Assembly (NCBI GenBank): GCA_000004985.1
Contig: GG738852.1
From: Naegleria gruberi
Taxonomy: Eukaryota
Strand: one strand, 5' to 3'
DNA length: 64,000 bases
The notes below the pieces were generated by a model. That model was not told the origin of the DNA. It did no database searches and was given only the letters and a program-made list of their open reading frames with translations. Within the stretch, counting starts at the first letter, position 1; each line of letters starts with the position of its first letter. Positions 24,450-59,308 of this stretch are shown one piece after another. The position numbers and the translations under genes are program-made.

Positions 24450-24462
24450 TTGGCGCCAAAAA
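24450..24462 (+). promoter_or_regulatory. E2F-like site TTGGCGCCAAA, about 27 bp upstream of the start codon
   Basis: Near-palindromic TTTSSCGC/GCGCCAAA core. GCGC is otherwise very rare in this AT-rich window. Confidence 0.45.
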
Positions 24463-24486
24463 AATTACAGATTTTCAGGAAAAAAA

Positions 24487-26109
24487 ATGTCTAGGCCCAA
24501 TCTACTTATTGATGATAGTTCCATGATGGCAAGGGAAACCCCTGTAAGGGAATACGAAGAAGAGGAGAGGACTCTTAATATGGGCTCATCATTCATAAAA
24601 CCATCACCAGTAGTTGCTCCTCAACGATCACCAAGATTTAATGAAGACGGAACAATAATAACTGTTGGAGGAAGGAATAGAGAAAGTAATATTTCTAAAT
24701 ATCCTGATTTGCCAAATTTTGAAATGTATGAATTTGATGAAATGGAAGAAGTGTTGGAGAGAATTATTAAGGAGAATGAATTTGTGGAAGAGGAGTTGTA
24801 TATTTTCGAGGCATTTCTAAAGAAAATGTCGGAAAGGAATGGTGTTGCACAGTCACAAGACAGAGATTTAACGCTCAACTCTAGTGCTATTATTAAAAAC
24901 GAACCAGGATCACAACTAGCAACTCCAACACATAAGGATAAAGTTGAAAAACAAAAACAGCAACAACCAGGAGTGCCTGTTCTGACCTCAGAGTCCATCA
25001 GTGAAATTAGCGACAATAGAATGCAAAGAAGAAAATCCATAGATAATGCTTCAGTTTCATCATTCGATGATGGAAGTGATGACGCCAGTTCTGTGGTCAG
25101 TAGTGGAACAACAGGTACAGGTAAAAAGAAAAAGAAGAGAAGACAAGCAGTTCAAGAATATCAACTAACATACGAAAATAAGATTGAAATTGGTTTGAAA
25201 GCTATTGATATTTTAAGAAACACAATAGAAAAGGAAAATAAGATTTACGAGAAGGAAATTGAGAGCATGAGAGCAAGAGTTCAAGAAGCAGATTTAGAAA
25301 TTGAGGAGGTTGATAAGGAACATTTGGAATTCAGAAAAGAAGTAGTTGAACCAAAAGAGGCTAGAAATCCTAATGACAAGGTACAGCTTGGATCTGCATT
25401 GGCTGCTGAGAAAATTGTACAATATTTCAAAAACAAACAACAACAAAAAGATACACTCCTTCACAAACTAAAATTGAAAATATCTGAAATGAGGAAACAA
25501 GTTGCCAAGTCCAAGACTCAACTTGAAAGTCGAGAACAATCAGGTGATCAACTAACCAAGACTGATTTTGACCAGCTCAAGATTGAAAATGGTCTCATGA
25601 ATAAGAAAATTGATGAAAGAAACAAGGAACTAGTCGATTTAAAGTTGAATACTGGAGCCCTTTTACAAAAGCTGTCGGCCCTCACAGAGAAGTTAAATTT
25701 ACTGAATCAAGACTCAAAACTATTCAACAAGGATATTGAAAAGAGTAAGAATGACCTAGATGCTCTGAAAGAGGAAATTGAGTTTGTTTTAAAGGACAAG
25801 GACATTGAATCGAATAGAAACCAGAAGATGGTTGCTCAACATGAACAAGTTAAGGTCCCTGAAATACTTTCATATATTAAATTGAAAGCCGAGTTGGATA
25901 TGTATAGAAAAGAATTAGCTAATTGGCAACGAAAAGTTGAAATTCAATCAATGAATGAAAGTAATACGAGAAAGAAACTTCAAGGAATGTTCATGTCAGG
26001 AAAGCAAAGGGTTCCTTCAGCTGGATCAACAAAGAGTGAAAGCAGTCTTTCAGGAATCTTGACAACAAATAACCAACTCTCGAGCAAACAACTATTCAAG
26101 AATATGTAA
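24487..26109 (+). CDS. Coiled-coil protein (540 aa); possibly related to the CCDC113/CCDC96 DUF4201 family (weak)
   Basis: Long intronless ORF, heptad-rich throughout. The segment QLKIENGLMNKKIDERNKELVDLKLNTGALL resembles what I recall of DUF4201, from memory only. Confidence 0.55.
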   Translation: MSRPNLLIDDSSMMARETPVREYEEEERTLNMGSSFIKPSPVVAPQRSPRFNEDGTIITVGGRNRESNISKYPDLPNFEMYEFDEMEEVLERIIKENEFVEEELYIFEAFLKKMSERNGVAQSQDRDLTLNSSAIIKNEPGSQLATPTHKDKVEKQKQQQPGVPVLTSESISEISDNRMQRRKSIDNASVSSFDDGSDDASSVVSSGTTGTGKKKKKRRQAVQEYQLTYENKIEIGLKAIDILRNTIEKENKIYEKEIESMRARVQEADLEIEEVDKEHLEFRKEVVEPKEARNPNDKVQLGSALAAEKIVQYFKNKQQQKDTLLHKLKLKISEMRKQVAKSKTQLESREQSGDQLTKTDFDQLKIENGLMNKKIDERNKELVDLKLNTGALLQKLSALTEKLNLLNQDSKLFNKDIEKSKNDLDALKEEIEFVLKDKDIESNRNQKMVAQHEQVKVPEILSYIKLKAELDMYRKELANWQRKVEIQSMNESNTRKKLQGMFMSGKQRVPSAGSTKSESSLSGILTTNNQLSSKQLFKNM

Positions 26110-26149
26110 AAATAATTAACTTTTACCCATTATTTCAGTATTTTACAAT

Positions 26150-26875
26150 TTACTTCTTTCTAAGGAAGGTTGCTCCATCTCCAATAACCTGCATTGATAT
26201 GTCCCATCTTTCATCAGTGTGTAACTGTTCGTTCATTTGTCTTATAATGTCAGTACCAGGAGAATGATCATCCTTGTCCATCACTTTAGTGGACCAAATA
26301 ACATTGTCAATAACCAACAAGCCATTCTGTCTCAATAACTTGTAAGCATACTCAACATATTCAAGTTGGTTATCCTTATCAGCATCAATGTATATGAAAT
26401 CGAATAGTTGTCCTTCCTTTTCAAGTTCCTTAAGAGAATCCAATGCAGGTTGCAAACGAAGATTAATTCTATCACTAACACCAGCCTTTTCCCAGTATGG
26501 TTTTCCAATACTGGTCCACTCTTGAGAAATATCTAAAGTTACTACCTTTCCTCCAACATTTTCACTTGCTAATGCAAAGCTTAGAGCTGAATATCCTGTA
26601 AAGCAACCAATATCAAGAATATTTGAAGCTCCCATCAATTTGATGATCATTTGTAACAATTGAGTTTGTTCTGGAAAGGACAGCATATATCCAGTCAATC
26701 CAAGCTTTTCCATTGTAACTTTTCTCAATTCTTCTAATACTGACTGCTCCCTCATACCAACTTGTCTCACATAGTTCAAGATTGGTTCCTCTACCAAGTA
26801 TCTGTATTTGATTCCTCCAATGTTTAGTGTTGTGCTCATTCTTTTTGATTTGTTATTGTCTTTCCAATAAGTCAT
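26150..26875 (-). CDS. Class I SAM-dependent O-methyltransferase, caffeoyl-CoA O-methyltransferase/COMTD1-like (O-MTase family 3)
   Basis: SAM-binding motif ILDIGCFTGYSALSFA (cf. LEIGVYTGYS). Metal/substrate motif FDFIYIDADKDNQLEY (cf. DFIFVDADKDNY). 241 aa, TAA stop. Confidence 0.85.
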   Translation of the reverse strand: MTYWKDNNKSKRMSTTLNIGGIKYRYLVEEPILNYVRQVGMREQSVLEELRKVTMEKLGLTGYMLSFPEQTQLLQMIIKLMGASNILDIGCFTGYSALSFALASENVGGKVVTLDISQEWTSIGKPYWEKAGVSDRINLRLQPALDSLKELEKEGQLFDFIYIDADKDNQLEYVEYAYKLLRQNGLLVIDNVIWSTKVMDKDDHSPGTDIIRQMNEQLHTDERWDISMQVIGDGATFLRKK

Positions 26876-27427
26876 ACCATTGATTATTTATAGGTCAGTA
26901 TGATCGGCCAGTTTCTTTCTCAATCCTCTCTGGAATCCAATTAGATGAAATGGTCAATTTTGCCAATGTATAAATTAAAGTGCGTCTAAAAAGTCCATTT
27001 CACATGAGATTTGTCTGTACAGAAATTTTTACAATATTAATACTCTCTTTACATGAACCCTTACTCTTTTCTCAATCTGCTTCAATCTCCTCAATAAAAA
27101 AAATCTCAATCAGTAAGAACTTTGCCCTAGCGCTGGAAAGCACGTTGAGTTCTCTTCTCGATAAAAATAGTGCCACCAAAGCTTTGCAAAAAAAAGATTC
27201 TCTTCATCATTCCGTACAAGTCCTGTCTTCTTGAAAAAAGTGGTTGATTTCTCTCTTCAAAAATTTTCATCATCAATATAGACAACAACAACAACAACAC
27301 CTATAATTATATTGACAATAGTTATTATTGATAGAGTGTAAATAATAGTATACTACTAACAAATTTAATATTTTGAGAGGAGGAAACGGAAATTCGTTTT
27401 TTTGATCATCTAGCCTTTTTATTGTGA

Positions 27428-28357
27428 ATGACATCACGACAATTAAGTTTGACCTGTAGTTTTGGGTGCTACTTTATGACTACTCGTTTTGATGAGCAAC
27501 AATGTCTCGGTACATCACTGACAAACAGTGATCACTCTGATAATGGCACAGCAGTTGATAATGTGTCGGTCACTTCTTCTTGTTCTTCCTCATCGTCAAC
27601 TTCCTCGAGTAACAATGATGTTGCAAGTAGTGATAAACAACAGCAAGTGGAACCATTCTATCACAAAATTCAAGAATTGTGCTCTTCAAGCCTACTAAAG
27701 TATAATCATGGAAAATATTATTATGCATTGCAAAGTTTCAATGAGTGTTTATCTATGGTTGAGAAGGAATTATCAAAACAAGGATTAGATTTGAACCATT
27801 CTACATTGGAAACAAATCAACCACAAGACAATACCAAAGCACTATACTTTTCAAATCAACTCTTAGACAACTCGAGTAGTACATGCCTTGTTGAACATAT
27901 CAATGAGGACTTTTTTGCAAACCTTTCCGATACATCACAAAACTATTACCTCTATTTATATTATCAATTGTGTTTCCAATTAGCCAAATGTCACTTTAAG
28001 CTAGGTCAATTAAGCAAGGCTTATTTTTATTTGTATAATATCTGTTCGAGATGTGAGAATATTACAAACGATCTTGAATATTCACTTCTCTTACATGAAG
28101 TAGAGCAAATGGTACTTTTTGATAAAGTGATAGACGATAACAAAACCACCTACAGTGAAGAACTAGAGAACTACAGATCACCAAAGAGGAAAAACTCCCT
28201 ACCAACAAGTAATGTTATACAATCGAGACTCAATCCAGCTATTCCAGCAAGCCACACTATTAATCCCAAATTATATTTCCCCTTAACTTATACTCCTGAA
28301 CAACGAGACGATTGGCAGTCCACATTTATGAAATATCAAAAGAAAGTTTGTAAATAA
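27428..28357 (+). CDS. Hypothetical protein (309 aa)
   Basis: ATG-initiated ORF, Ser-rich N-terminal part, no recognised domain. Confidence 0.45.
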   Translation: MTSRQLSLTCSFGCYFMTTRFDEQQCLGTSLTNSDHSDNGTAVDNVSVTSSCSSSSSTSSSNNDVASSDKQQQVEPFYHKIQELCSSSLLKYNHGKYYYALQSFNECLSMVEKELSKQGLDLNHSTLETNQPQDNTKALYFSNQLLDNSSSTCLVEHINEDFFANLSDTSQNYYLYLYYQLCFQLAKCHFKLGQLSKAYFYLYNICSRCENITNDLEYSLLLHEVEQMVLFDKVIDDNKTTYSEELENYRSPKRKNSLPTSNVIQSRLNPAIPASHTINPKLYFPLTYTPEQRDDWQSTFMKYQKKVCK

Positions 28358-28480
28358 TGTAAAACAATTAATGTAAATAGTATTTGTTTCTCGAATTTTT
28401 TATTCAATTTAGTTCTTCAACAGACAGAGTATAGATACAGAACTAGTAACTTGAATCTTTAAAGAATATGATATTTTATT

Positions 28481-29257: not shown

Positions 29258-29443
29258 TTTTTTTTAATCTATTTTTTATTTGTGTTCAAAGCTTCAAATA
29301 AGTTGTTCTTTGAAAGTGACGTCAATCTTTAGAAATGGTTGAAATTTTGAAACTCTGAATTATTTAATTTAATAAATTTAAAACAATTGATGACGAGTAA
29401 CAAAAGAGAGGAGTGTAAAAGTGAGCACCTAATGTTTGAAAAG

Positions 29444-29455
29444 TAGCGCCAAATT
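29444..29455 (+). promoter_or_regulatory. E2F-like site TAGCGCCAAAT, about 70 bp upstream of the first ATG of the cyclin-like gene
   Basis: GCGCCAAA core (reverse complement of TTTGGCGC). Confidence 0.4.
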
Positions 29456-29519
29456 TTCAAATTTTAAGGTTGAAAAAAATAGGTTGAGTGAGTTATTAAG
29501 TATTGAGAATAAAGGCTTG

Positions 29520-30377
29520 ATGGAAATAGTAACGGTATCTGATTTATCACTTTCCGAAGTGAAGGAAACAATGATTCAACAATGGAACAAACAATATACT
29601 CTGTGGGTTGAGTTTTGCTCTGTGTTTCTTTCCAAGAATACTAAAGTCACCGAATACATTTTACAGTTGTGCAGGAAGAATATTAAATGTAAAAATCCCT
29701 TAATTCATTATCATTCATTATTGATGATGTTTAAGGTATTGAAAAAGTGAGTACATCTAGAATTTCGATTTGTTCAAATGGCCACATTCTTCTTTAGAAA
29801 TTTGACAGAATATGATCCAACCCTCCTCGGATCAACATGTATCAATGTCCAGAGTAAGAGATTTGGAGAGGAAGGAATAGCTTTGGAATCAATTTTAAAT
29901 ACGACCAATAAGTATAGAAGAAAGCATAATTTGAATGAATTGACTGAAGAGAGCGTTAGAGAGTATGAAGTTCAAATTCTTGAAATAATAGAATATGAAA
30001 TCAATACAATATCATTGTTTGATTTTGTAGAGTTGCTCACTGGTTGTGTGTACGACTTGTCTTGCCCTCAAGTTATTCCCTTTGTGAAGGAGAAGTTTAT
30101 AGCGATGGCTTCAAAGCTTTACGATTACTTGTTATTTAAACCAGGTTTCTTGTCTCTCCAAAGAGATCCATGTTTGTTTGCAAGTACATTGATCTTTCTT
30201 TCCTCCAAGATTATAACCTCAAAGAGAAATGAGGCACTCCTGTCATGGCGTAAGTAATTTGTAATCAACTTTCTTAATATTTTGTTTGTCTACGGCTCAG
30301 TTTCTCATTTGTGTGAATGCGAAGTAAAAACAATCGAACAACTTGCTAATGAAATAGAACAACTCATTAAAGATTAA
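29520..30377 (+). CDS. Cyclin-fold-like hypothetical protein; 3 exons (about 29520-29746, 29798-30249, 30301-30377) with two 51-nt introns
   Basis: Track ORFs 29436..29750 and 29778..30257 share one frame and are separated by a single TGA. A GTGAGT donor at 29747 and a tctttag acceptor at 29796-97 remove the TGA and keep the frame (AA+A=Lys, then NLTEYDPT). A second GTAAGT donor overlaps the terminal TAA, and a ggctcag acceptor 51 nt later adds a 25-codon tail. LWVEFCSVFLS resembles the cyclin-box WLVEV motif. Confidence 0.45.
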
Positions 30378-30577
30378 ACCTCTTTCCAACTATCATGTGA
30401 ATCTTGTACCAGAATACAGCATGATTAAAATCGATCTGATAATTAAACAGTGACAACGAGATTGCTTGTCATCAAAACAACCCATCCCAAATCACCATCA
30501 AATGTTTCGTGGCTTGATTTTTAACATCACTCTAAAAAATATCCAAATCCCACCACCTCTTTTTCTCTGTCTAAAAA

Positions 30578-31481
30578 ATGGTAGGTTTTCTCATCAAGAT
30601 TTTGACAATCTAAAACAATATCTAATGCTAATGATGGTGATCATCAACATTCAATATATTGCGATAATCTAATATTAATAACAATAATACTATCATCATC
30701 ATGTTGATGTTAATATTTTTTATTTATTTCATGATGGATTTACAACAACAATAATAACAACTATTTGATGACGTGATGATTACCATAATATTACTGTGGC
30801 TAAACATTCTCTGCTATTTGTTATATTATAGACTACAACTGCTCAACCATACTACGATTGTATCCGTAAATCCCTCGAAGCTGCTTTGTGTCTTGAAAAC
30901 TTCCCATCTCAAGTCATTGAAAGACACAACAAGCCAGAAGTTGAAGTTGGGTACGTGTTAAAGAGTATTTCTAATCATTATTAACAAACCTATTCTACTC
31001 GTTATTTGACAATATATGTTGTGAAATTGTCAATTTGTGGATTAATGATGGCTCATTGTAATACACTTTGGATTTTAATGATATTCAACTAAACAGTACA
31101 AGCAGGGAATTGTTGCTCAACCCAATCATTATCAGCAAGGATAAATTTGATCGTTGCATGATTGAAGGATCAGTCAACTCTGTCAGAATCAGTCTTTCAT
31201 TCAAGAAGAACGACGATGTTGAAAGAATTATCTATAAGCGTTTTATGCACTTTTTGATGCAAAGAGCTGAACAATTCTTAGTTATGAGAAGAAAGCCAGT
31301 CGAAGGATATGATATCAGTTTCCTTGTTACCAACTTCCACATTGAAGATATGTTCAAGCAAAAGTTGATTGATTTCATTATTGGATTCATTGAAGACATT
31401 AACAAGGACATTAACAACATGAAGTTGCAATCAAGTGCTCGTGCTCGTGCTGTTGCCAAGAAGTATCTCGGAGCTTACTAA
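30578..31481 (+). CDS. ARPC4: Arp2/3 complex subunit 4 (ARPC4/Arc19); 3 exons (30578-30580 ATG only, about 30832-30950, about 31097-31481)
   Basis: Exon 3 matches ARPC4 nearly end to end ([56 protein letters not shown]). Exon 2 encodes [40 protein letters not shown], matching human MTATLRPYL...[25 protein letters not shown]|gtaggt donor; gtacgt donor for intron 2; an actaaac branch-like element before the acag acceptor. Confidence 0.85.
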
Positions 31482-31709
31482 ATTATTTAGTGTCAACCAC
31501 CTGTCTGACACAACTTGTAACATTTTAATTAAATTATTTATACATCATACACTTGTAAAATCATTATTTCTCATTCAGTAACTTGTAATTATTCACTATG
31601 ACATTTTGCCACTACTTCGTTTCTGGAAAGGAACATTCAGCTCCACTAGTCTATTATTATCAAAATTGCTGAATCATAACAACAAAAAAATACACTGAAC
31701 ATCATAACA

Positions 31710-32285
31710 ATGCCACCAAAGAAGAATAACAATCCTTCTCTCAACAAGGTCTCAAACAAGACCATTACTGTCGGAAATGTGCAAGGAGAACTTGTATTTA
31801 ATGGTGGATATCTCGGATTGAAGGGTGATCTTGTGGAAAGATGTTTGGACAATTTTCAGGATCAAATCAATGAACACTGTCCAAGCGAATATAAGAAAAA
31901 GAAGGATGACAGAGACAAGACTTCACATCATCACATTACTCTCATGTTAAAGCAAGATATCAAGAAGGCAACTGAATCTCTTAAAGATTCTTATCCATCT
32001 TTGTTACCAGCTGATATTTCTGCTGAAAATGTTACTGTTCAACACTTGTTGGATGCAATGGCAAAGGAAATTGATTTTTCAGAAATTACAGCACTAGGTG
32101 TTGGTAAACAAAAGAAGGCAGCAAATGAAACAGTATATATTGTTGTGGAATGGCCAAGCGCTTCTCACTTTTTGAAAAATGTTAATGCTGACACTAGAGA
32201 TTTCCATATAACTTTAGGATTTAAGGATACAGATATTCATGGAGTTGCAAAAAATAGAATGACATTAGTAAAAAAATCAGAATAA
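31710..32285 (+). CDS. Putative 2H phosphoesterase-superfamily protein (two H-phi-T-phi motifs); hypothetical
   Basis: 191-aa ORF. SHHHITLM near residue 75 and FHITLGF near residue 165, spacing typical of 2H/CPDase-like enzymes. Inference only. Confidence 0.4.
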   Translation: MPPKKNNNPSLNKVSNKTITVGNVQGELVFNGGYLGLKGDLVERCLDNFQDQINEHCPSEYKKKKDDRDKTSHHHITLMLKQDIKKATESLKDSYPSLLPADISAENVTVQHLLDAMAKEIDFSEITALGVGKQKKAANETVYIVVEWPSASHFLKNVNADTRDFHITLGFKDTDIHGVAKNRMTLVKKSE

Positions 32286-39583: not shown

Positions 39584-40576
39584 TTAATATCTTCTTTTAT
39601 TGTGAGGAGGTTGATAATTACTGTTATTGTTATAATACCTCTTTTGGGCTCCTCCACTATTGTTATTAGAATAATTACGATTATTGCTAGTATTGGAATA
39701 GGAATTATTAGAATGTTCATTTGATCCCCCAACATTTCGTCTAGATTCTCTGGATTCTTCATTGGAACGTTGCTGTTTGTTTTTTCTAATGGTATTCTCA
39801 ATGTCACTCAATCCAACCAGTGAAGATGAATTATCATTGAGAACATTGAGATAAACTGCCTTTGGTCGTTTGTACATTTCCTTAATGTGTTTTTCAACAA
39901 ATTCCAATTCATCTCTTGTTGTATTGAATAAGAGCCACCAAGCAGGATTCTCAGGTAAGACTCGGGAATGTTCCTTTGCTGACATGTAAACAGCTCCACA
40001 AGCAATCACTTGAGGTTTTGCACTCAGACTTAAAACAGAACATCTCAAAGCATCATTACAATAATTCCAAGCAGTTTGTGTTAAATCCTCATGTCCTTCA
40101 AGGATGTGCATGACAAACAAAATGTATTGATGAGGCAATTCAATATTATAGAATGTAAATCCTAATTCAATGAGAATGTATCTCTCCGTTCTTATTAAAT
40201 GTGATTTTAAAAGTTCCACAATATCTGGTGAAATGTAATACAATTCCGGATAGATAATATCGATAAAAACTTGTAAAAAGTGAAAAATTGATCGGTGTGT
40301 TTCTTGAATTTTACAACTAATAAAAAGACTAGCCATAGCAACATGTCTCACACAAAATTCCTTCATTGACTTTTTCATATAAAATCGATGAAAAATTATT
40401 TGTGCATGAGAAATGGTTGTTTGAGGTAATTCCAACAATATTCCGGCATCTTGAATTAGTTGGCATGCATATAACTGCAAATTGGTTTCATCATTTTCCG
40501 AGAGTTGATCTTTCCGTGATGGAGTTTCATTTTTAATAAATTCGAGAGGGATAAGTGGTGGAGAGGTGTCTTTCAT
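39584..40576 (-). CDS. Cyclin L (transcription/splicing cyclin) with a C-terminal Arg/Ser/Asn-rich tail
   Basis: [27 protein letters not shown] vs human [55 protein letters not shown] vs [42 protein letters not shown] vs HWFLLFGATEEEIQ. Confidence 0.85.
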   Translation of the reverse strand: [330 protein letters not shown]

Positions 40577-45022: not shown

Positions 45023-46331
45023 CTACTTTTGAATATTCAGCGTTTTGCTGGATACAAACGGAATAGTAGAATTATCAAAAACACCCGACCTTGATTCGGT
45101 AGGTTTGAAAGGGTAACTTAATTGTTTTTCCTTTGCATCTTTTCTTGTGATGGATCTAACTGGATCAATAAACTTCTCAGAGGCAAGAATAGTCTCTACA
45201 GGAATAACATCCTTCTTTTTCTTACATGGTACATAATTCTTTTTGGAGACTAGAGTAATTAGTTTCAATGTTGTTATTGTTATTCATTAGGTTAATTAAG
45301 CATTACTTACTTCTTGTATCTTTTTCAATCATATTCTCAAACCTAATGACTTCCTTATCTGTATCGTATTTACAAGAGTTTTGAATTGATCTTTCATAAG
45401 TCTTTTCTTTGATTGATACAACCTCTTCTGGTGGTTTGAAAGGGCCATGTCTTTTATCCTTATATCTCATTTTGTCCTTATCATTAATCGGTGGTAGAGG
45501 TTTATCCCTTTCTTGAAGATTTCCTTTAATTTGATCTGGATACAGGTAGGCAAGGGATGGATGTGTTTTCAGTTCCGAATTGTTGGATCTCATCAGAGTT
45601 GAATTTACAGGAACAACCTTCTTATTTTGAAGACTGTTAATATATTCAGTTTTTGCAACGTATCTCAATTGGTCTTCTACTGGAATTCCATATACAGTAT
45701 CCTCGGAAATATATCTATGATTTGGTTTGTAAACACCAGGAATGGCCTTTGTACTGACAAGGTGATGAAGGGACTTTGAATATTCTTGAAATTTTTCGTA
45801 GTCTTTCTTTTCCTTTTCATCTTGCATTTCCTCAGTTCTTTGTTGCTTGTATTGTTGTACATATTCGTTTGTGAGAGAACTTTGATGTTCAACAAAGGCC
45901 AAATACTCCTTTCTCTTATAATAATTATGTACATATTTTCTCACCCAAAATCCTCTGAATATCCTTTGAATTTGAGCTGCACAATAGTGATAGAGTTGAA
46001 TTCGCTCCTGTTTTTCTCGTTCCTCTTGCAGAAGTCTTTTCAATTTCCTTCCATAAAGATGTCCTCTAAATACTCTCTGAATTGTAATTACTTTATGTCT
46101 GAATTTAAGGAATGCACTTCTTACAATCCATCTTCTGTATGTTTTTTGAATTGAGAGCGCAGCCTTGTTTTCCTTATCTCTATTTGATTCCGCCTCCCTT
46201 TAAAATTTGTCAATTAATTATTCAATCCAATTTATATAATGATCGTACCTTCTGGCTTGAAAGAAACTCTCCATCACAATATCGGGAGAGAGTTCTAAGA
46301 AGATTTTAGGTCTATTTGTTCCTACAGACAT
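45023..46331 (-). CDS. IQ calmodulin-binding motif protein; 3 exons (46331-46249, about 46197-45311, about 45249-45023) with 51-nt and 61-nt introns
   Basis: Three IQ motifs (ALSIQKTYRRWIVRSAF, VITIQRVFRGHLYGRK, AAQIQRIFRGFWVRKY). Track ORF 45303..46043 starts at TTG with the frame open upstream. Exon 1 is ATG..AGAAG|gtacga, acceptor ttttaaag. GTAAGT donor overlaps the TAA at 45303, and a ctctag acceptor joins to track ORF 45023..45268 in phase (A+TC=Ile). Confidence 0.6.
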
Positions 46332-46592
46332 TTTTTTCAAGTTGTTTGACCAGTAAATTAAATGGCGGGAAATCATCTTCCATCACCTTTTACTTACCTT
46401 GAATCAAACGAAGCCTATTCTATTTCTGACAAATTGATAAATAGAATAATCTTCTATTGTTTTAACTATTAATTATGAAAATAAATCCTTTCGATAACAT
46501 CGCTTTATTCTCTCTAAATACCATATTTATTCAAATAGTACGCAGTTGAGTGACTCATCTATTTTTCTAAGGAATGAAAATTGTAGTTTTTT

Positions 46593-46604
46593 AGCGCCAA
46601 ATTT
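46593..46604 (+). promoter_or_regulatory. E2F-like site TAGCGCCAAAT, about 115 bp upstream of the ATG at 46715
   Basis: GCGCCAAA core. Confidence 0.4.
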
Positions 46605-46714: not shown

Positions 46715-48076
46715 ATGGACAGAAGTGACTACGACAGTGAAGATGATCAGCAAAACTGGACAATCCCTGATACACAGGAGCAAGAAGAAGATACCACACC
46801 TCTCTTTGAGAATGTTTCACCTCAACCAAAATCTAGCGAAAGAGATTCGGTTCATCTTCATCAACTATATTACATTGACCAAGGTGAATGGAATGATTTC
46901 CAGAATAATCAGCAATCAAATCAACTCTCTCCAACATTGGATAATGTATCACCTAGCCTTGACTCTTCTCAATACCATCTTCAAGATAATCTTCTTCTAG
47001 GTATTAAGCAAGAGCCACCAACAACAACATTAGACAAGGCTCTTCTCATTGGAACCTCTCTTCCTAGCTTTATCAGAAAGAAACTTCCCAAAGAGGAGCA
47101 AGAAAAATTTGCCAACACCCGACTGCTCATGTTCAACAGAGATTATTTCTTTGCAGTGATGGACGAGGAGAACGACGAATTGGATCGCTTGGTATGCATT
47201 GATAAGGCTGACCTTACTCTCAATCCAAAAGATGATAATTATTCTGTAAAGAGAAGGCGAACATTTGCAACTTCCGATGATGAAGAAGAATCGATTGATA
47301 GTGAGTGTGACCTGTATGTTGATGAGGCAGAATCAGACGAATCAGCAGACTATAAAGAATATGAAGAATATGTGGATTTTGAAGAAGAGGATGTAGCAGA
47401 GGAAGAAATAGAAAAACCCAAACCTGTGAAACCTAAAAGAACAAGAGCTTCATCCTCAAAAGAAAATAGAGTTTCATCTTTATCATCCCAAATTGCTTCA
47501 TCTTCCTCCTCCGCAGAAAACTCATCCTCCACTGTACATAGAGTTTCATCAACATCAGATACAATACTTGTTCACTTCTTTGCAGATAAGATTGAGGAAG
47601 GAAGATACCTATCCTCCACTATTTATGCTCCGTGCAGAACTAAAACAGGAGCAAAAGCAGTCAAACCAAATGCCTATGTAAATAAGAGAACCACCATCAA
47701 ACAAACCGACAAGACACTGCTGCTAACAATTAGTAATCCATTTGGGAATTTAAATAGACATGATTTTGAAATTTGCATCATTGTGGATGATAGTTTCCAT
47801 GGAGAGGAATTAAAAGTGAGGGATCAGTTGAATGATAAGGAAATGCTTGTGAAAAAATTGATAAAAGACCCAGAAGAAGAAGACCTACTAACAATTGTAC
47901 ATCAGAAAAAGGTTGAAGAAGGATGGGAAATTGGTTGTCAAGTTAGCACTTCAAATAATTTTGGATGGAAATCAAAGCACAAGTATTACAAATTTCTAAT
48001 TCTATCCAACATTCAAAATGTCCACTCATGTGTTTCCGAAGAATTTAGAGTCTCTCAAAATGTAAGTTTTGTCTAA
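46715..48076 (+). CDS. Hypothetical acidic protein (453 aa in the main exon), possibly extended by two C-terminal mini-exons to about 48237
   Basis: ATG ORF, D/E-rich N-terminal half. A GTAAGT donor lies 2 codons before the stop. The downstream mini-exons would encode CAQNMRQSNKK and KKKQKKRKKHIS*. Confidence 0.5.
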   Translation: MDRSDYDSEDDQQNWTIPDTQEQEEDTTPLFENVSPQPKSSERDSVHLHQLYYIDQGEWNDFQNNQQSNQLSPTLDNVSPSLDSSQYHLQDNLLLGIKQEPPTTTLDKALLIGTSLPSFIRKKLPKEEQEKFANTRLLMFNRDYFFAVMDEENDELDRLVCIDKADLTLNPKDDNYSVKRRRTFATSDDEEESIDSECDLYVDEAESDESADYKEYEEYVDFEEEDVAEEEIEKPKPVKPKRTRASSSKENRVSSLSSQIASSSSSAENSSSTVHRVSSTSDTILVHFFADKIEEGRYLSSTIYAPCRTKTGAKAVKPNAYVNKRTTIKQTDKTLLLTISNPFGNLNRHDFEICIIVDDSFHGEELKVRDQLNDKEMLVKKLIKDPEEEDLLTIVHQKKVEEGWEIGCQVSTSNNFGWKSKHKYYKFLILSNIQNVHSCVSEEFRVSQNVSFV

Positions 48077-50738: not shown

Positions 50739-51944
50739 CTATTTATTTTCTCTTCTTTCTTTGATTTCTCCCAAGAGCTTGTCCTTTTTAAGCGAGAATT
50801 CAGTTTTAATTCTTTCCATTTCTTCCATGAGTGCCTTTTTGTAATTTTCAACAATTTCATTGTTTGCATTGGAGTATTCTTGTCTGGTATGTTTTTGAAC
50901 TTGCAGTTCATTTTCAATATGTACCTCATTTACACTATCATTCGAGTCATCAGAGGTAGCAGATTTGTTAAGGAGTTCCATTCCTGACTGAGATGATCTC
51001 ATTTTAGTTAAGGTTGACCTGTCAAAAGGAAGCTTTTCTTCCGTTACAAACTCTTCATTAAGGTATTCCCTCATGTTGTATTGCACTAGGTTTGGAAGTT
51101 GCTCCTTAACGGAATCTTCTTCTAATACTAGAGGGTTTTGGTCAATGTTGAATATGATAAGGCTCTTTGGTAAGTTTTCCAAATCACAATATTCAATTAC
51201 ATTATTGGATAAGTCAAGGTATTGAAGTTTGTGGTTATCTGCCAATTCATTTTCCACACGTTTAATCTTGTTATCAAATAATGCTAAAAATACAAGGTGT
51301 GGCAAATATCTAAACTCATCAGATAACTCTGTAATAAAATTCTATTCTATGGTCAATAAATTTCATTCACTAAAACTTACACATTGCAGATAAATATGAG
51401 TCAAATGGCCATACAAATCCAAATTTTCAATTACATGAATATTACTACGATCCAAATTTAACTTTTTAAGCTCGAATAATGAAGTGTACAACTCGTCCTC
51501 ATCAGTTGGAATCTCAGTGAGACACTTGTCTGCCACTAACTTGGGTGTTATCTTTGTTGGTTTTTTGACTACTGTAGATTGAGTACGTTCCTTTTTCAAG
51601 TCATTTTCCATGTCCTTTATTGAATAAAATCCTTCACCAAGACCATCAGATTCATCATTATTCAGGTCAATATTTTCCGATAGAGTGCTTGATGTATCAT
51701 TGATCTCCACTTCTTGTTTCTCCTGTTCTTGTTGTTGCTTGGAGGGAGTAGAAGATTTTGATTCAGTCTTTTTTGCCACCTTTGGTTGTTGAGATGTTAC
51801 TACTGCACTTTTTGTAGTATTATTATTACGTTGTGGTTGTACAGTGTTTGGTGTTCTTTCCGATAAGGATTTGTTACTAGCCGAAGAGGTTGTAGTTTTT
51901 GTTGTTTTTGCACCTGTTGTTGTACTAGTTTTGGCGCCAATCAT
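50739..51944 (-). CDS. Leucine-rich-repeat protein with a C-terminal coiled-coil; 2 exons (51944-51381 and about 51326-50739)
   Basis: LRRs (LNLDRSNIHVIENLDLYGHLTHIYLQC | LSDEFRYLPHLVFLALFDNKIKRVENEL..LQYLDLSNNVIEYCDLENLPKSLIIFNIDQNPL). GTAAGT donor directly after TGT at 51381; the phase-0 acceptor acagag gives a 54-nt intron. S/T-rich N-terminus. Confidence 0.6.
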
Positions 51945-53314: not shown

Positions 53315-56113
53315 TTATTGTAAAAATTGAGAAATCCATTGACAAATATTGGCAGAGGCTAACCTGGCTTCTTTAGAATAATCAATCATATTCAGATAAC
53401 CATGACCAAGAGCATCATATAATTGGATCTTGACTCTACCTCCATTGTTTTTGGCAATACGTTTGGCCATATAAATTCCATCATCAAAGAGAGGATCCAA
53501 AGCACCCATATCAAAATAGGTTGGAGGGAACTTTTTCAACACTTCCTCGTCAATCATAGCAGGAGAAACGAATGGATTTTCAAAGGCATTATCAGAATCC
53601 TTACAGTAAAGCTCTCCACACAATCTCAAAAAGTTAATATTTACAAGTGGTTCAATAACAGAGATTTGACGTGAAGGTGAAGGTGAAAAATCAAGATATG
53701 TCACTGGATAACTCAAAACCAAAGCATCTGGTAATCTGATACCGTCTCTGATTGCTCTTTGAGCAACAGCCAAAGTCAAATTACCTCCAGCACTATCACC
53801 TGCTATAACAATTCGTTTCAGAGGTGCTCCTAATACCTTCTCGCAATTGGCTAATAGCCATTGATAGGCTGCATAACATTCCTCAATTTGAACCGGGAAT
53901 TTCTCTTGAGGAGATCTTCTATAATCTACAGAAATTATTGGAATGTGCATTTCAGAGCACCATCTTCTCAAGTAAATTTCATGACTGAAACTTTCCATGG
54001 CAATAAAACCACCACCATGAATGTGTAAAATGATAGAACCATCGAATGTATTCTTTCCTGCTTCTTCCTGTTTGGTTTTAATGGAATTAATGGCTTTCAT
54101 AATTTGTGAAAGGTATGGGAACTCTTGTTGCTGGCTTGTGATGTACTCTGGAGCTTCGCTGAGTGGTTTAGTTGATAAGAGTCTGAGCCCAATTTCTTGG
54201 AAGTTGTGATTCTTCATGGATTCCTCCATCGCACCATAGTAGAATTCCATGGCTGAACTTCCCTCTTTAACATCCTCAAATCCTTCCATATTTGGGTACA
54301 TATTTGTAGTAGAACTGTTAAACTCAATTGGTGTCTTGGTAGTATCTGTTTTTTCCTCTTCAGACAATTCATCTTCATCCTCAGAGTAGTAGACTTGTAA
54401 CTTTTCAGTTTGATCGTTTTCGTTATTATTACCAAATAGAATGATGGAACTGTTTTGTGGAGCCTCCTTAGAGACACTAACATATTCAAATTCATCACCA
54501 TCAATATCTAATCCAACACTATCAACAATTTTTCTATTTGGGAATGGTATATTAAACTTTTGACTTGTTTCAATGTAAGGATATCCTAAATAAGTAAAAG
54601 TCTTGATGAATTTGTTGTTATCTTGAATATTCCAAAACTCACTACTGGCAATTGGATTCTTATTAAATAAATCTACACAATTTTCGGCTGCAGTCTTTGG
54701 ATTCACCAAATAGTAAGCACTAGCTGCATAGAATATCAAATCTTTTTTCAACTTGCTTGGAATATCTTGAGTATGACCGAAACTAGCAGTTGCTTTTACA
54801 ATCAATGCCAAGAACCAGGCAACTTCAGAATCATAGAATGATCCAATATGCTCCATAAATGCAGATGGTTTTACATTTTTCAATTCTTCCATGTCCCCAA
54901 TTTTAATACTTTGAGAGAATGGAATGAATGAAGAGTTATTGGTATCAATCTTGTCAATTCTTTCCTGTAGAAGAGTATTTGAAACAGTAACCATAGTTTT
55001 TAAAACTTGGAATTTTTGTTGATAAATATCAAGCCACTTTTCATACTTTCCATCACTGACAGAGAAGAAGAATGATCCTCTATTTTTGATTACCTTATTG
55101 ATATCATTGATACATTCCTTGAAAGTGTAAATTATAACTAGAAAACATCCTCTGAAATGGAATGCAGAATCTATAAAATTAAGATCAAATGAGGCCATAT
55201 TTTTAGAATGAGAGGTACAATAAGTTTCTTCCAATTTCGATTGATTTGGATACCTATCATTTTTCAATAATTCTAGTTGGACTAGCTTGTTTTTCAATTG
55301 TTTTAAATATCCTTCAATTTCCTTTGAAAGTTCTAAAATGCATTTCAACAATAAATAAATATTGCCATTGGATAAATTATTTTCATATTTCTTTGCTTCT
55401 GAAAGGAATAGGCTCTTTGATGACATGACTATTTCCAAAGTATTATCAATCAATGTAAATCTATCTTCAGGTCCTTCAATAGAAAATAAACTATTCTGAT
55501 GATAGAAAATGTCCAAACCATACAAATCTTGATTTTCGGGTTGATATTTTAAAATTGGTTCTTCTTGATCGACTTGAGAAAATTTAGAAAAATCAACATT
55601 TTGCACATTATCGGTATCAAAGTAGGAAGAAGGTGACGAAGATGAAGTATTGGCAAATTGTTCTACCATAGATGATTGATCCGTTATTAATTTACCATCA
55701 TGATCGTTGCTATTCTCATTTACGAGAGGAACTTTTGGTGGTGAACTCATTTTTTCTATTGTTTGTTCGATATTACTTCTCTCTTCTATTGAGGATCTCT
55801 TGTGGTGTGAAGATTTTATTTTTGGGTGAATATTAGCTTTGATAATATTGTGATCTCCAAGCAATGAAGGAATCCATTTCAAAAATCGAAGGGATTTGGA
55901 AGCATGTTTATCCACAACGCTTTCAATATTTTCAGTATCTTGCGAATGATAAGATGATTCTAATTGAGAGGTTGAACGAGATCTTGTAGATGGAAGTACT
56001 GATAAATTTTTAGAATTACCAAGAGAAAGATGGGGAAGAAAGGTTCCGAAATGAAATCCAGGCATTTTGTAATGGAGAGTGGTTGAGTGATTTTTCAATA
56101 ATACTTTTTTCAT
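53315..56113 (-). CDS. LIPE: Hormone-sensitive lipase (HSL/LIPE family) with HSL_N domain and a long low-complexity N-terminal extension
   Basis: Catalytic HIHGGGFIAMESFSHEIYLRRWCSEMHIPIISVDY...IVIAGDSAGGNL matches human [30 protein letters not shown]...ICLAGDSAGGNL. HSL_N-like NRGSFFF..., EFWNIQDNNKF (cf. FWKAFWNI). The track ORF extends to 56347 but overlaps the upstream gene in another frame. First ATGs are about 56113 and 56065. Confidence 0.85.
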   Translation of the reverse strand: MKKVLLKNHSTTLHYKMPGFHFGTFLPHLSLGNSKNLSVLPSTRSRSTSQLESSYHSQDTENIESVVDKHASKSLRFLKWIPSLLGDHNIIKANIHPKIKSSHHKRSSIEERSNIEQTIEKMSSPPKVPLVNENSNDHDGKLITDQSSMVEQFANTSSSSPSSYFDTDNVQNVDFSKFSQVDQEEPILKYQPENQDLYGLDIFYHQNSLFSIEGPEDRFTLIDNTLEIVMSSKSLFLSEAKKYENNLSNGNIYLLLKCILELSKEIEGYLKQLKNKLVQLELLKNDRYPNQSKLEETYCTSHSKNMASFDLNFIDSAFHFRGCFLVIIYTFKECINDINKVIKNRGSFFFSVSDGKYEKWLDIYQQKFQVLKTMVTVSNTLLQERIDKIDTNNSSFIPFSQSIKIGDMEELKNVKPSAFMEHIGSFYDSEVAWFLALIVKATASFGHTQDIPSKLKKDLIFYAASAYYLVNPKTAAENCVDLFNKNPIASSEFWNIQDNNKFIKTFTYLGYPYIETSQKFNIPFPNRKIVDSVGLDIDGDEFEYVSVSKEAPQNSSIILFGNNNENDQTEKLQVYYSEDEDELSEEEKTDTTKTPIEFNSSTTNMYPNMEGFEDVKEGSSAMEFYYGAMEESMKNHNFQEIGLRLLSTKPLSEAPEYITSQQQEFPYLSQIMKAINSIKTKQEEAGKNTFDGSIILHIHGGGFIAMESFSHEIYLRRWCSEMHIPIISVDYRRSPQEKFPVQIEECYAAYQWLLANCEKVLGAPLKRIVIAGDSAGGNLTLAVAQRAIRDGIRLPDALVLSYPVTYLDFSPSPSRQISVIEPLVNINFLRLCGELYCKDSDNAFENPFVSPAMIDEEVLKKFPPTYFDMGALDPLFDDGIYMAKRIAKNNGGRVKIQLYDALGHGYLNMIDYSKEARLASANICQWISQFLQ

Positions 56114-56177
56114 TTTTGTGGTTTCAAAAAGAAAAGATATTAGAATGGAAATAACACAAAATGTAACAATACGAATT

Positions 56178-57797
56178 TTATTTGAAGGAATCGTAAAACT
56201 CTTCTTCGACATTGAAGAAATCCATATCTCCATCTTCTTGCTCTGGTTTTCCACTGAAGATTGATTCCTGGTAGGTATCATCACTATCAAGACGGAAAAT
56301 GTTTTCCACCAGTAAGGGCTGCTTCTCTTTACTTTGATATTCATCATCTATTACTAATTCTTCCTCATGCTCTGGAATCTTTTGACTTTTGATTTGCTTT
56401 GAATTATCATTCCTTCTCAATTCTTCCACCTCATGTTTTAATGTTTCATTTTCTCGAGTAAATTCATGGTTTATCTTTCTCAGTTTAGAGTTGATTTCTA
56501 TTAATTTCTTTCCCTCAGTCTTTAATAGATTATTTTGTTTGACCTGATCCTCCAATTGACGATACAATCCTTGAAACATTAGATTGGAGTAATAGAAGGA
56601 TGGATCCCAAAGCTGGTGTTGAAAGTTTACAGGTATTTGGGTGTTATCTGTAGTAATTGGTGGAGGTATTAAACTTTCAACATTCGAGCTTGTAAGTGGA
56701 GTTTGTTGATTCAAAAGGGCAATCATTGATTCCTGTGAAAGTGCAGATGGGTCATCTGTGGTATATGCCTCACTGGTTGCAAATGGCAGAGCTGCTTCCA
56801 TATCTTCGTCTGTTGTGCTTGCAGCAGCAGCAGTAGCAAATGATGTTGTTTTTTCTAAATCATTTGCAAGAGCTTGATAACTTTCCCTCTCAAAAGAACT
56901 GATTTCACCAAACGAAGACGATGCCAATCCACTTGGGCTAGCTTGAGTTTTTTTCGTAGATTCTTGTTGATCCTCTTCCTTTCGTTTCCTCTTCTTCTTT
57001 CCGTCGACACTTTCTGTGCTATTCTCTTTAGATGAAGAGCTACCCTTCACATTACTCAACACTGGAAATCCCTTCATTGACATGTAGAGATCAACCTTGG
57101 TATCGCTATAATTTGTGAAAGCTAATAGGATTTTAAAATCGCCTGTTCTCTCCTCACCATCACACAAGTAACTCTTCTGACAAAAACATTGGGACTGATA
57201 GCAAGTTCCCTTCTTCTCCAACTTGGACATGGTTGTGACTTTTCTCATCTTATCAAAGAAAGCAAACGAATAAATGCCAGGATAATTGGTACCATCAATT
57301 CCATCAATCAAAAAAGCCTTTCGGGAAAAATTGGTTGCACTCAATCTACATTCTATTGTATTTCTATCTTTAGGGTTTAATACATTGTGCTGTTGGAGAA
57401 AGCCATCAAGAATTGTTTTTAATTTTACAATTGTGCCATGTACTTCATCCGATGTTATTTTACTCTTTGATTTGGTAATGACTTGTTCATTCAGTTGTGC
57501 AAGATTTTCTGCGGTTAGAGTGAGCGGTCTATTGTCTCCACTGTCATCAACCAACAACTGATAAAAAGTCTCACTATAATTGGCCATTTTTTCTTGTTGA
57601 TTTGATTCGGAGAACAAACATATTAGTTTACTTGTGTTGAAACACAACCTTTCTTGTTGCAATACACAAGTTGGAATTTGGCAATAATTATCATAGTAGT
57701 ATGAGCATAGATATAAGAATAATTGTGGCTTGCTGAAATACTGAAAGTCACTTGAATTCAATTTTCGGAAGGAAAATGCTCTATCTGATTCTTTCAT
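56178..57797 (-). CDS. Hypothetical protein (539 aa; may start at the internal ATG MANYSETF, about 57587)
   Basis: ORF with an acidic C-terminus and a C-terminal coiled-coil (LKHEVEELRRNDNS). The N-terminal 70 codons overlap a duplicated ~85-bp element. Confidence 0.5.
   Translation of the reverse strand: MKESDRAFSFRKLNSSDFQYFSKPQLFLYLCSYYYDNYCQIPTCVLQQERLCFNTSKLICLFSESNQQEKMANYSETFYQLLVDDSGDNRPLTLTAENLAQLNEQVITKSKSKITSDEVHGTIVKLKTILDGFLQQHNVLNPKDRNTIECRLSATNFSRKAFLIDGIDGTNYPGIYSFAFFDKMRKVTTMSKLEKKGTCYQSQCFCQKSYLCDGEERTGDFKILLAFTNYSDTKVDLYMSMKGFPVLSNVKGSSSSKENSTESVDGKKKRKRKEEDQQESTKKTQASPSGLASSSFGEISSFERESYQALANDLEKTTSFATAAAASTTDEDMEAALPFATSEAYTTDDPSALSQESMIALLNQQTPLTSSNVESLIPPPITTDNTQIPVNFQHQLWDPSFYYSNLMFQGLYRQLEDQVKQNNLLKTEGKKLIEINSKLRKINHEFTRENETLKHEVEELRRNDNSKQIKSQKIPEHEEELVIDDEYQSKEKQPLLVENIFRLDSDDTYQESIFSGKPEQEDGDMDFFNVEEEFYDSFK
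57607..57690 (+). repeat. Copy 1 of an ~85-bp direct repeat (about 95% identity with 58082-58165); contains an imperfect inverted repeat
   Basis: ggagaacaaac-tatta-tttacttgt-ttgaaacacaa-ctttcttgttgcaatacacaagttggaatttgg shared by both copies. Confidence 0.8.
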
Positions 57798-58081
57798 TAG
57801 TTCATCATCATTTAATAATTAATGGGCTATTTTCGGATTGTGATTGGAATGAACGTCTTTAACAAAATTTAGGAAAATAATTGGAAAATTATATGTGGAT
57901 TAGAACAATTAAATTTGGATTTTTGAATATTTAATTTAATAACGTTTATTTTAACAATACCTGGAAAGATATGTAAGCTTGTTGCCAACTCGGAGTCTAC
58001 TAAGATCACTAAACTGTTACATTTTCAAATTGCTTATATAATCAACATATTCCTACTTGATCAAAATCGAGACACAACAAT

Positions 58082-58165
58082 GGAGAACAAACGTATTAAT
58101 TTACTTGTATTGAAACACAATCTTTCTTGTTGCAATACACAAGTTGGAATTTGGATTCTATAATG
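58082..58165 (+). repeat. Copy 2 of the ~85-bp direct repeat, intergenic; the minus strand keeps a pseudo-coding frame (TCVLQQERLCFNTSKLI...)
   Basis: Alignment by eye with 57607-57690. Confidence 0.8.
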
Positions 58166-58408
58166 TGCTGACAGGTTGGAGAAATATTTTTGATTTCCAC
58201 TATCCCCTTAAGAATGTAATGGCTTTCGTATTTGAATAATATTTTAGGTTTTGTGATTTATTGTAGATTCCTACTCTTTCTCAAGTATCGTTGAAAAAAA
58301 AGTGTAAATGAATCATTCCTTGAGAGTCAAGGCTTAATTTCCTGACAATCATAATCTTCTTCTCACTAACAATATGAGCTATTAATGAGTATTCAATAGG
58401 AATGAGAT

Positions 58409-59074
58409 TTACTTTCTGTCTAAAATTGTTGCAACACCAGGCAATTCCCACTTCTTTTCTAACCATACTTTCTTAATGTACATGTAGAAAAAGTCAGCAT
58501 ACAATACAGTTTGAATCAATCCGGCTAACCAAGCATTATAAGGTGAATAACCTTCACCAAAATATCTATAAACCCAATTCAAAATGTAAAAGACACGATA
58601 TCCTCCCAAAGTGAAAACATAATGTGAAGTAATAGCTTCAGCTCCTCCTTTCTTTGTCAATAAGAATAATTGTGGCATGATGGCAAGACTTTCTAAAAAG
58701 ATACTAAAAGTCCACAATAATTCGAATACAGAATAATCATCAGTAAAGATAATACCCAAAATAATAGAAGGAACAATGAGGAAATAAAGTGGGAATGTAT
58801 CACTTTGTGTATCATAGGTTGCACGATATTTAGTTCTCATCAAGTAAACAATAGCAATAGATGAAGCAAGGAAGAAAATCTTCATAAGAGTATTATAAAG
58901 AGAAATGAAGGAAGTAAATAAATCAATTCCGTATCTACAAATAAAAACAATAACATATAAAAATTGTGTTCTTAAAGACACTCCAGCACAATTTTTCAAC
59001 ATGATCATCTTGTAGAGAAGTAAGCAAATTGATCCAAGGTGAAGAAAATCACCAAATAAACGGAAAATATTCAT
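58409..59074 (-). CDS. ERD2: ER lumen protein-retaining receptor (KDEL receptor, ERD2)
   Basis: MNIFRLFGDFLHLGSICLLLYK..SCAGVSLRTQ..ISLYNT..LWTFSIFLESLAIMPQLFL..GGAEAITSHYVF..YILNWVYRY..LIQTVLYADFFYMYI aligns along the whole length with human KDELR1. Confidence 0.92.
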   Translation of the reverse strand: MNIFRLFGDFLHLGSICLLLYKMIMLKNCAGVSLRTQFLYVIVFICRYGIDLFTSFISLYNTLMKIFFLASSIAIVYLMRTKYRATYDTQSDTFPLYFLIVPSIILGIIFTDDYSVFELLWTFSIFLESLAIMPQLFLLTKKGGAEAITSHYVFTLGGYRVFYILNWVYRYFGEGYSPYNAWLAGLIQTVLYADFFYMYIKKVWLEKKWELPGVATILDRK

Positions 59075-59295
59075 CTTCTTGTCCTCCGATTAAATAATTT
59101 TTTTTTAAAATAAATAAGCTGCAAAAAGTACAATAACGTAATGCCACGTATTTGGCTCTTTGAACTTTCATACGTCTGACTATGCTTGCTATTGTAGTAC
59201 TATTATAAATTCTCTTTCCATTCAATATACATCATCATCAGGTAGGAAAAGAGGAATTTCTTCTTTCACAAGTTGAAAATGAATTTATAGTTCGA

Positions 59296-59308
59296 CCGCG
59301 CCAAAATT
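59296..59308 (+). promoter_or_regulatory. E2F-like site CGCGCCAAAAT, about 35 bp upstream of the ATG at 59340
   Basis: GCGCCAAAA core. Confidence 0.4.

Follow-up and report, generated by a model that had tools for sequence, protein, structure and literature searches.

A promoter-proximal E2F-type element before a subset of genes in Naegleria gruberi

What is a GC-rich word doing so close to start codons in DNA that is mostly A and T, and which protein might read it? The question is raised by a window of 64,000 nucleotides (the whole stretch of DNA that was analysed) from Naegleria gruberi NEG-M, a heterolobosean amoeboflagellate with compact, intron-poor genes, in which the word GCGCCAAA recurs before genes in a form that resembles the binding site of the E2F transcription factors. 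Judged by its sequence it is a genuine E2F-type cis-element, and the recurrent SCGCCAAA(A)/TTTSSCGS probably serves as a promoter-proximal site for a Naegleria E2F-family factor that would co-regulate a subset of genes. The original prediction, that the motif is real, strongly over-represented, promoter-proximal and similar to the E2F consensus, is thus upheld, and its remark that such a motif points away from yeasts was correct in spirit, given the heterolobosean host.

Positions 1-19199 of the window are N, from a scaffold gap or padding, leaving 44,801 bases of real sequence (70% of the window). Within this part (19200-64000) the G+C content is 33% and CpG is depleted, with an observed to expected ratio of 0.41 compared with 0.83 for GpC. 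It had been noted before that GCGC is rare here, and there are indeed just 10 in 44.8 kb, five of them within copies of GCGCCAAA. Enrichment and position were assessed in these 44.8 kb and in about 125 kb of related loci, a local rather than a genome-wide scope, and the start codons of the 27 window genes were set approximately, from open reading frames (ORFs) and Pfam. A run of 6-9 A typically precedes the start codon (aaaaaaaATG) throughout the window, and likewise in N. fowleri, N. lovaniensis and Willaertia; this context was used for choosing start codons.

Against this background the word occurs five times, where 0.15 +/- 0.39 copies are expected from 100 dinucleotide-preserving shuffles, the largest count in any shuffle being two. 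The degenerate form TTTSSCGC occurs six times in the window, with 0.97 expected. One-mismatch variants of the word, counted with the palindrome arms removed, are not enriched (14 compared with 10.65 expected). The coordinates given originally were right to within one base, the third site being the one that was off, by a single position, and a sixth site of the E2F type, TTTCCCGCC, was found upstream of a minus-strand gene that the original prediction did not include. The six sites are as follows, with distances in nucleotides (nt) from the end of the motif to the ATG.

24450-24460, plus strand: TTGGCGCCAAA, an exact match, with GCGCCAAA at 24453-24460; 26 nt upstream of the CFAP263 ATG at 24487.
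29446-29453, plus strand: (TA)GCGCCAAA(TTTT); 66 nt upstream of the gene 2 ATG at 29520.
46364-46372, minus strand: TTTCCCGCC, with its TTTSSCGC match at 46365-46372; 32 nt upstream of the FAP305/SPATA17 ATG at 46331.
46594-46601, plus strand: (TTTA)GCGCCAAA(TTT); 113 nt upstream of the gene 3 ATG at 46715.
51930-51940, minus strand: TTGGCGCCAAA, with GCGCCAAA at 51930-51937; overlaps codons 2-5 (I-G-A-K) of a leucine-rich repeat (LRR) gene, gene 5, in the sense direction, GCGCCAAA starting at +7.
59298-59305, plus strand: (CC)GCGCCAAA(ATTTGAA); 34 or 40 nt upstream of the gene 4 ATG at 59340 or 59346.

Relative to a start codon, all five copies of GCGCCAAA fall in the range -121 to +7, each in the sense of its gene. 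Promoter-proximal sense space (-150 to +15 in 27 segments) makes up 5.0% of the two-strand sequence, and the probability of all five falling there by chance is about 3e-7. The word is also the sole GC-containing 8-mer common to at least 5 of the 27 promoter-proximal segments. The copy in the LRR gene had been dismissed as coincidental, lying as it does inside a coding sequence; it sits at codons 3-5 in the same sense as the other four, and since only 0.15 copies are expected in the whole window, a chance copy at this gene start is very unlikely and the site is probably real. Just 45 kb were examined, in a window chosen for its motif, and it might be suspected that the copies have clustered by chance or derive from a dispersed repeat. 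This is effectively refuted, as none of the 100 shuffles reaches five copies, the bias in position and orientation is of the size given above, the sites are conserved in other species, and likeness between the surroundings of the copies extends over at most 8-13 nt, so that they do not belong to a dispersed repeat.

It is also conceivable that the word is a general core-promoter or start-site element, similar to an initiator and with no specific regulatory meaning. The short and fairly constant distance to the ATG in compact, AT-rich promoters would fit such an element, but the distance does vary, from +7 to -121, and an E2F-type site is found at only 6 of the 27 gene starts of the window and at about 2 of the 33 non-query gene families in the fetched loci. 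Housekeeping genes of the window, namely HSP60, the KDEL receptor (XP_002680919), ARPC4, TFIIA-gamma and a DEAD-box helicase, are without it, as are TFIIIC-tau95, a cap methyltransferase and a clear cyclin (39584-40576), and a core-promoter role is accordingly improbable.

The likeness to E2F sites goes further than a shared 8-mer. When nine sites are aligned on their core, all have an invariant CGCCAAA that is preceded by G or C and followed by A or T, giving the consensus SCGCCAAA(A), which is TTTGGCGS on the other strand. It has been found by SELEX, ChIP-exo and structural studies that E2F/DP heterodimers and the atypical E2F8 prefer TTGGCGGGAA (which equals TTCCCGCCAA), that homodimers of E2F take GGCGCC, and that 3-4 A/T next to the core are read via a narrowed minor groove (PMC4686757). 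Naegleria sites are exactly equal to published E2F variants, these being TTGGCGCCAAA, CCCGCCAAAAA and TTTCCCGCC, and two of the sites are palindromic. Two other known elements were considered and set aside. A bipartite element of the type formed by the cell-cycle-dependent element and cell-cycle genes homology region (CDE/CHR, bound by DREAM) was suggested by TTTGAA/TTCAAA after some sites, but TTYRAA is common in AT-rich DNA and is absent at half of the sites; a CCAAT box does not apply, the word being CCAAA and not CCAAT.

The proteins that could read such a site are encoded in the genome. Sequences of N. gruberi E2F, DP, DEL and RB are given in the supplement of PMC4862756, so that the condition named for refuting the prediction, a genome lacking any E2F/DP gene, does not apply. 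NgruE2F matches the Pfam families E2F_TDP (1.3e-28) and E2F_CC-MB (7.8e-32), and in comparison with the DNA-binding domain of human E2F4 (1cf7_A, 2.8e-25) its recognition helix is identical over 23 aligned residues. NgruDP carries RRRVYDALNVLMALNIISK, and NgruDEL is a two-domain protein of the DEL/E2F7-8-like kind. Because the DNA-contact helices are unchanged, the encoded E2F and DP should bind these sites unless they are occluded.

The mechanism proposed is as follows. The protein bound to the site would be E2F paired with DP, or E2F paired with itself where the site is a GGCGCC palindrome, or else the DEL/E2F7-8-like protein with its two domains. The RRxYD helices of the winged-helix domain would read the CGC/GCG core, and an N-terminal arginine the adjoining A/T run via the narrow minor groove. 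With a distance of 20-115 nt to the ATG, and in one gene a place just within the coding sequence, the site would probably lie at or just upstream of the start of transcription. Once bound, the factor may switch the gene subset on or off together, either without the RB homologue or with it, RB being a likely modulator. Binding by these proteins, the direction and timing of regulation, and the family member that acts are what we infer here from sequence. The preferred sites of typical and atypical E2Fs are indistinguishable (PMC4686757), and because of this the sequence does not decide which family member acts.

Conservation of the element can be followed at two genes. Orthologues of CFAP263 with their flanks were collected from N. 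fowleri, N. lovaniensis, a Naegleria from Joint Genome Institute (JGI) metagenomic data and Willaertia magna, and those of FAP305 from N. lovaniensis and a Naegleria from European Nucleotide Archive (ENA) metagenomic data. The orthologous promoters are too diverged for alignment with MAFFT, and the comparison was anchored on the motif. The sites are:

CFAP263, N. gruberi: GGCGCCAAA, 26 nt to the ATG.
CFAP263, N. fowleri: CCCGCCAAA, 38 nt to the ATG.
CFAP263, N. lovaniensis: CCCGCCAAA, 56 nt to the ATG.
CFAP263, JGI metagenomic contig: GGCGCCCAAA, 21 nt to the ATG.
CFAP263, Willaertia magna: AGCGCTAAA, 26 nt to the ATG.
FAP305, N. gruberi: TTTCCCGCC, 32 nt to the ATG.
FAP305, N. lovaniensis: CGCGCCAAA (with context CGCGCCAAAAA), 31 nt to the ATG.
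FAP305, ENA metagenomic contig: CCCGCCAAA (with context CCCGCCAAAAAA), 27 nt to the ATG.

An E2F-type core is therefore kept at both genes, at a similar distance from the ATG, in promoters that are otherwise unalignable. In 14 kb of N. fowleri the single CGCCAAA is the site upstream of CFAP263, and in 99 kb of N. fowleri and N. lovaniensis there are eight CGCCAAA on both strands, a background of about 0.004 per sense promoter of 100 nt. The core itself alternates between GGCGCC and GGCGGG from species to species. At FAP305 the orthologous sites are in the same position and are followed by a shared block, TTTACTGG, and the A/T run lies 5' of the core as a T-run in N. gruberi (TTTCCCGCC) and 3' of the core as an A-run in the orthologues (GCGCCAAAAA). 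An A/T run that changes side at a kept position fits recognition as double-stranded DNA, and the swap of the core together with this change of side fits recognition by an E2F-family protein. On a shorter timescale, the site of gene 4 is intact in a strain that is 98.4% identical to the window, with two substitutions and a 6-bp indel flanking it. This strain is seen in the ENA metagenome ERZ929261 (PRJEB11402), which holds two contigs (L001, with the gene 4 site, and L002) that are 98.4-99.5% identical to the window region, so a closely related strain was in the sample; contigs from Naegleria species further removed occur in JGI sample 3300002220 and in ENA ERZ27315067. Scans of JGI metagenomes with FAP305 and with the CFAP263 alignment found no relatives.

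A site is also kept before an unrelated gene encoding a coiled-coil/IQ protein (L011:4578 in N. lovaniensis, L012:4487 in N. fowleri). It reads TTTCCCGC in the former species and TTTGCCGC in the latter, each time about 45 nt before the ATG, and has the TTTSSCGC orientation. This gene looks like another member of the putative regulon. Its product of about 876 residues is unannotated; the sites are at L011:4402-4409 and 4531-4538 and at L012:4431-4438, those of N. lovaniensis including a GCGCCAAA at -176. Elsewhere in N. lovaniensis, at L008:21064-21071, where the locus ends, there is a canonical GCGCGAAA, which is TTTCGCGC when read on the opposite strand; a DnaJ/Hsp40 gene, a candidate for the gene it serves, follows about 110 nt further on.

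These same comparisons bear on the suggestion that the word acts in the transcript, as an element of the 5' untranslated region for an RNA-binding protein or for translation. All five copies of GCGCCAAA are in the sense orientation, near or in one case inside the start of the coding sequence, as such an element would be. An RNA element would not tolerate strand inversion, though, and two of the sites are palindromic, the A/T run of FAP305 switches side between species and the coiled-coil/IQ gene uses the TTTSSCGC orientation. A role in the transcript is highly improbable.

The genes behind the sites are where the analysis departs most from the original prediction, which had the targets as classical E2F types. 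The six are:

24487-26109, plus strand: CFAP263/CCDC113 (NAEGRDRAFT_63907), an axonemal coiled-coil protein; Pfam CCDC113_CCDC96_CC, 8e-38.
29520-30378, plus strand: gene 2, 251 residues in three exons (introns 29747-29797 and 30250-30300, a model read from the sequence); helical, with no significant family match.
45303-46331, minus strand: FAP305/SPATA17 homologue in two exons (intron 46198-46248), an IQ-motif protein of the axonemal central apparatus.
46715-48076, plus strand: gene 3 (NAEGRDRAFT_46726), with an acidic N-terminal half and a C-terminal all-beta domain.
50739-51944, minus strand: gene 5, the LRR gene, 388 residues (intron 51342-51380), its ATG at 51944 in an A-run context (aaaaaaaaATG).
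59340-60485, plus strand: gene 4, of low complexity and rich in K, S and T, with an internal TKTIDSFF.

The first of these, which had gone unrecognised, is CFAP263: its ORF matches XP_002680736 exactly, under the UniRef name cilia- and flagella-associated protein 263. FAP305 was identified by a PDB sequence search (Chlamydomonas FAP305, 7n6g_4Q, 2.8e-25; SPATA17, 9ijj_3B, 1.6e-19), and its homologues include Xenopus SPATA17. Gene 2 had been described as cyclin-fold-like, which is not supported: its match to Cyclin_N has an E-value of 0.013 with the first gene model and 0.12 with the corrected one, both under the 23-bit cut-off, there is no PDB sequence match at E <= 5, and a partial AlphaFold model of exon 2 is all-helical with a pLDDT of 47, too poor for a structure search. 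Nor does gene 4 look like Pol delta subunit 3 with a PIP box, as it matches no Pfam family at E <= 10, that of Pol delta subunit 3 (CDC27/Pol32) included, and its TKTIDSFF is without the Q of a PIP box (QxxIxxFF) and is internal, about 120 residues from the C-terminus; a search for homologues of gene 4 returned nothing, low-complexity words filling the list of candidates. Gene 3 belongs to a family found in Naegleria and Willaertia only; its C-terminal beta-sandwich is predicted with confidence and gives weak Ig-fold matches only in a fold search. Gene 5 has a disordered N-terminus, leucine-rich repeats of the SDS22 type (Pfam LRR_8, 6.7e-14) and a C-terminal coiled coil, with generic LRR proteins as its PDB matches.

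The two identifiable targets are therefore axonemal, and the six as a set are not a classical G1/S regulon, none being demonstrably a replication or cell-cycle gene. This is one of several points that weigh against a site for an E2F-family factor. No recognisable G1/S gene (MCM, PCNA, RNR and so on), the class whose association with E2F sites is their functional hallmark, was seen in the roughly 170 kb that were examined from the Naegleria clade. The window was picked for containing the motif, so that a density of 6 in 27 genes is not a fair estimate. Before the N. lovaniensis homologue of gene 3 the site is missing, and N. fowleri has a different CG-rich block at this place. More distant relatives depart from the strict consensus, with GCGCTAAA in Willaertia and CCGCCCAAC in Acrasis; at the CFAP263 locus of Acrasis kona there is no clean site, the gene model there being doubtful.

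The same facts might be read another way, that a different and possibly lineage-specific factor drives the programme that turns the amoeba into a flagellate and that its likeness to E2F is coincidental. Both identifiable targets are axonemal and no classical E2F target with a site was found in the sequence examined, and Naegleria lacks RFX, FOXJ1 and XAP5, the regulator of its cilia genes being unknown (PMC12183034). In both axonemal promoters of the window TTAC(A/T)G follows 6-12 nt after the core, which hints at a composite element. On the other hand no alternative factor is known, and E2F and DP proteins are encoded whose unchanged DNA-contact helices would bind the site unless it is occluded. 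The match to E2F is also longer than the 8-mer, taking in also the alternation of GGCGCC and GGCGGG, an A/T run that may lie to either side of the core, and palindromes of the form TTGGCGCCAA. A different factor is thus unlikely, and a site for an E2F-family protein remains the preferred reading.

The TTAC(A/T)G word was seen in the forms ATTACAG, TTTACTGG and GTTACAG, about 22-25 nt before the ATG. Its carriers are both axonemal promoters of the window, FAP305 of N. lovaniensis and the coiled-coil/IQ gene of N. lovaniensis and N. fowleri:

Window, 24465-24471, plus strand.
Window, 46351-46358, minus strand.
L008:9973-9980.
L011:4556-4562.
L012:4454-4460.

It is not generally enriched in the 27 window promoters (2 compared with 1.4 expected, both of the two being axonemal). 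It could serve as an initiator or start site, or else form the second half of a composite element.

How far the E2F-type site is connected to the flagellum is a further matter. Both recognisable axonemal genes of the window carry a site that is conserved across species; the link is no more than suggestive, coming from two genes of a window that was selected because of its motif. A connection between E2F and the flagellar genes is plausible because of the missing RFX, FOXJ1 and XAP5, the control of vertebrate centriole genes by E2F4/5 with multicilin, the role of E2F in Stentor, and the expression of central-pair genes, which are unexpectedly up in both mitosis and differentiation of Naegleria (PMC10802493); the last is relevant because FAP305 is a protein of the central apparatus. 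In its strongest form the proposal would be that the E2F-type site, possibly with the downstream TTAC(A/T)G, is a main cis-element of the programme for the flagellar apparatus, with the ancient E2F/DP/RB module rather than RFX, FOXJ1 or XAP5 switching on axonemal and basal-body genes as the amoeba exits the cell cycle and assembles its basal bodies and flagella de novo. This is tentative, and we consider it somewhat unlikely.

Comparison with known systems helps to place the element. It is most like the E2F-DP-RB sites of animals and plants (TTTSSCGC; TTGGCGGGAA), sharing the CGC/GCG core, the flanking A/T run, the palindromic GGCGCC variants and a promoter-proximal location, with the same protein family encoded and recognition helices identical. 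The classical targets there are G1/S genes, whereas the Naegleria targets include none such and two are axonemal structural genes. The CCCGCCAAAA form (N. fowleri, N. lovaniensis and FAP305 of N. gruberi) is the E2F8-preferred TTGGCGGGAA on the other strand, and a two-domain DEL protein is encoded in N. gruberi, which makes for a likeness to E2F7/8 and plant DEL. Atypical E2Fs are repressors.

A protist precedent exists in Cryptosporidium parvum, which has a compact, AT-rich genome and in which the E2F-like DTTGSCGCCH and TTTGGCGGGAAV outnumber all other upstream motifs (PMC3734150). There too a conspicuous upstream E2F-type word was inferred from sequence before there were binding data, and it is used well beyond cell-cycle genes, which is again a likeness to Naegleria. 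The two differ in that the Cryptosporidium motif is upstream of most gene clusters and there is no RB, whereas in Naegleria a minority of genes have the site and RB is present.

With respect to cilia, the multiciliated cells of vertebrates have their centriole and cilia genes under the control of multicilin with E2F4/5 and DP1 (PMC4083089; see also the review PMC12183034), and the likeness is in E2F-family sites before genes of the ciliary apparatus in a cell whose basal bodies are made apart from ordinary division. In vertebrates, genes of centriole biogenesis and upstream regulators make up most of the targets, and geminin-family cofactors are needed, whereas the Naegleria link is to two axonemal genes. 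During regeneration of the oral apparatus in Stentor, E2F is induced and needed, and its predicted targets are co-expressed with centriole genes (PMC9371601). This is likewise a protist E2F tied to the rebuilding of a ciliary array, but the predicted targets are not ciliary structural genes, and there are functional RNA interference data for Stentor whereas the Naegleria element is known from its DNA.

A further mode of control may be considered in view of the depletion of CpG. The CpG inside the E2F-type sites are among the few that are retained in the window. Cytosine methylation and Tet-like enzymes are known from N. gruberi, and methylation of CpG affects how typical E2Fs bind. Since CpG is depleted yet kept in the sites, in a host that methylates cytosine, the sites might act as methylation-sensitive switches.

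The reference annotation seems imperfect at 39584-40576 on the minus strand and at 46715-48076 and 29520-31481 on the plus strand. The cyclin ORF at 39584-40576 on the minus strand encodes 330 residues and is annotated as a partial protein of 231; gene 3 is annotated with 461 residues, compared with 453 in the ORF, the two being identical over residues 1-450; and the three plus-strand genes at 29520-32285 have two accession numbers between them, so that one, possibly gene 2, may be unannotated. Exact look-ups with spliced models of the LRR gene, FAP305, gene 2 and gene 4 did not match annotated proteins.

The element is apparently undescribed in the Naegleria lineage, the cis-element and pathway themselves being well known. 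Full-text literature searches found no paper that ties E2F sites or the GCGCCAAA word to Naegleria promoters, and the identifiers of the window genes have no mention in the paper texts searched. The promoter architecture of Naegleria and of Heterolobosea is essentially undescribed, and the E2F-type site gives this deep-branching group its first concrete cis-element. It also favours the view that the E2F/DP/RB module, together with its DNA specificity, was already in place in the last eukaryotic common ancestor.

Should the flagellar link be an accident of a small sample it would have little importance. If the tentative proposal of E2F control of the flagellar apparatus is true, Naegleria would have an equivalent, either independent or ancestral, of the control by E2F4/5 and multicilin in vertebrate multiciliated cells, and this could account for the rise of central-pair genes in mitosis as well as in differentiation. 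RNA-seq data for both mitotic synchrony and differentiation exist for Naegleria (PMC10802493). What drives the very fast and synchronous induction of flagellar genes in this organism is an acknowledged unknown, and the E2F-type site makes that question directly testable.

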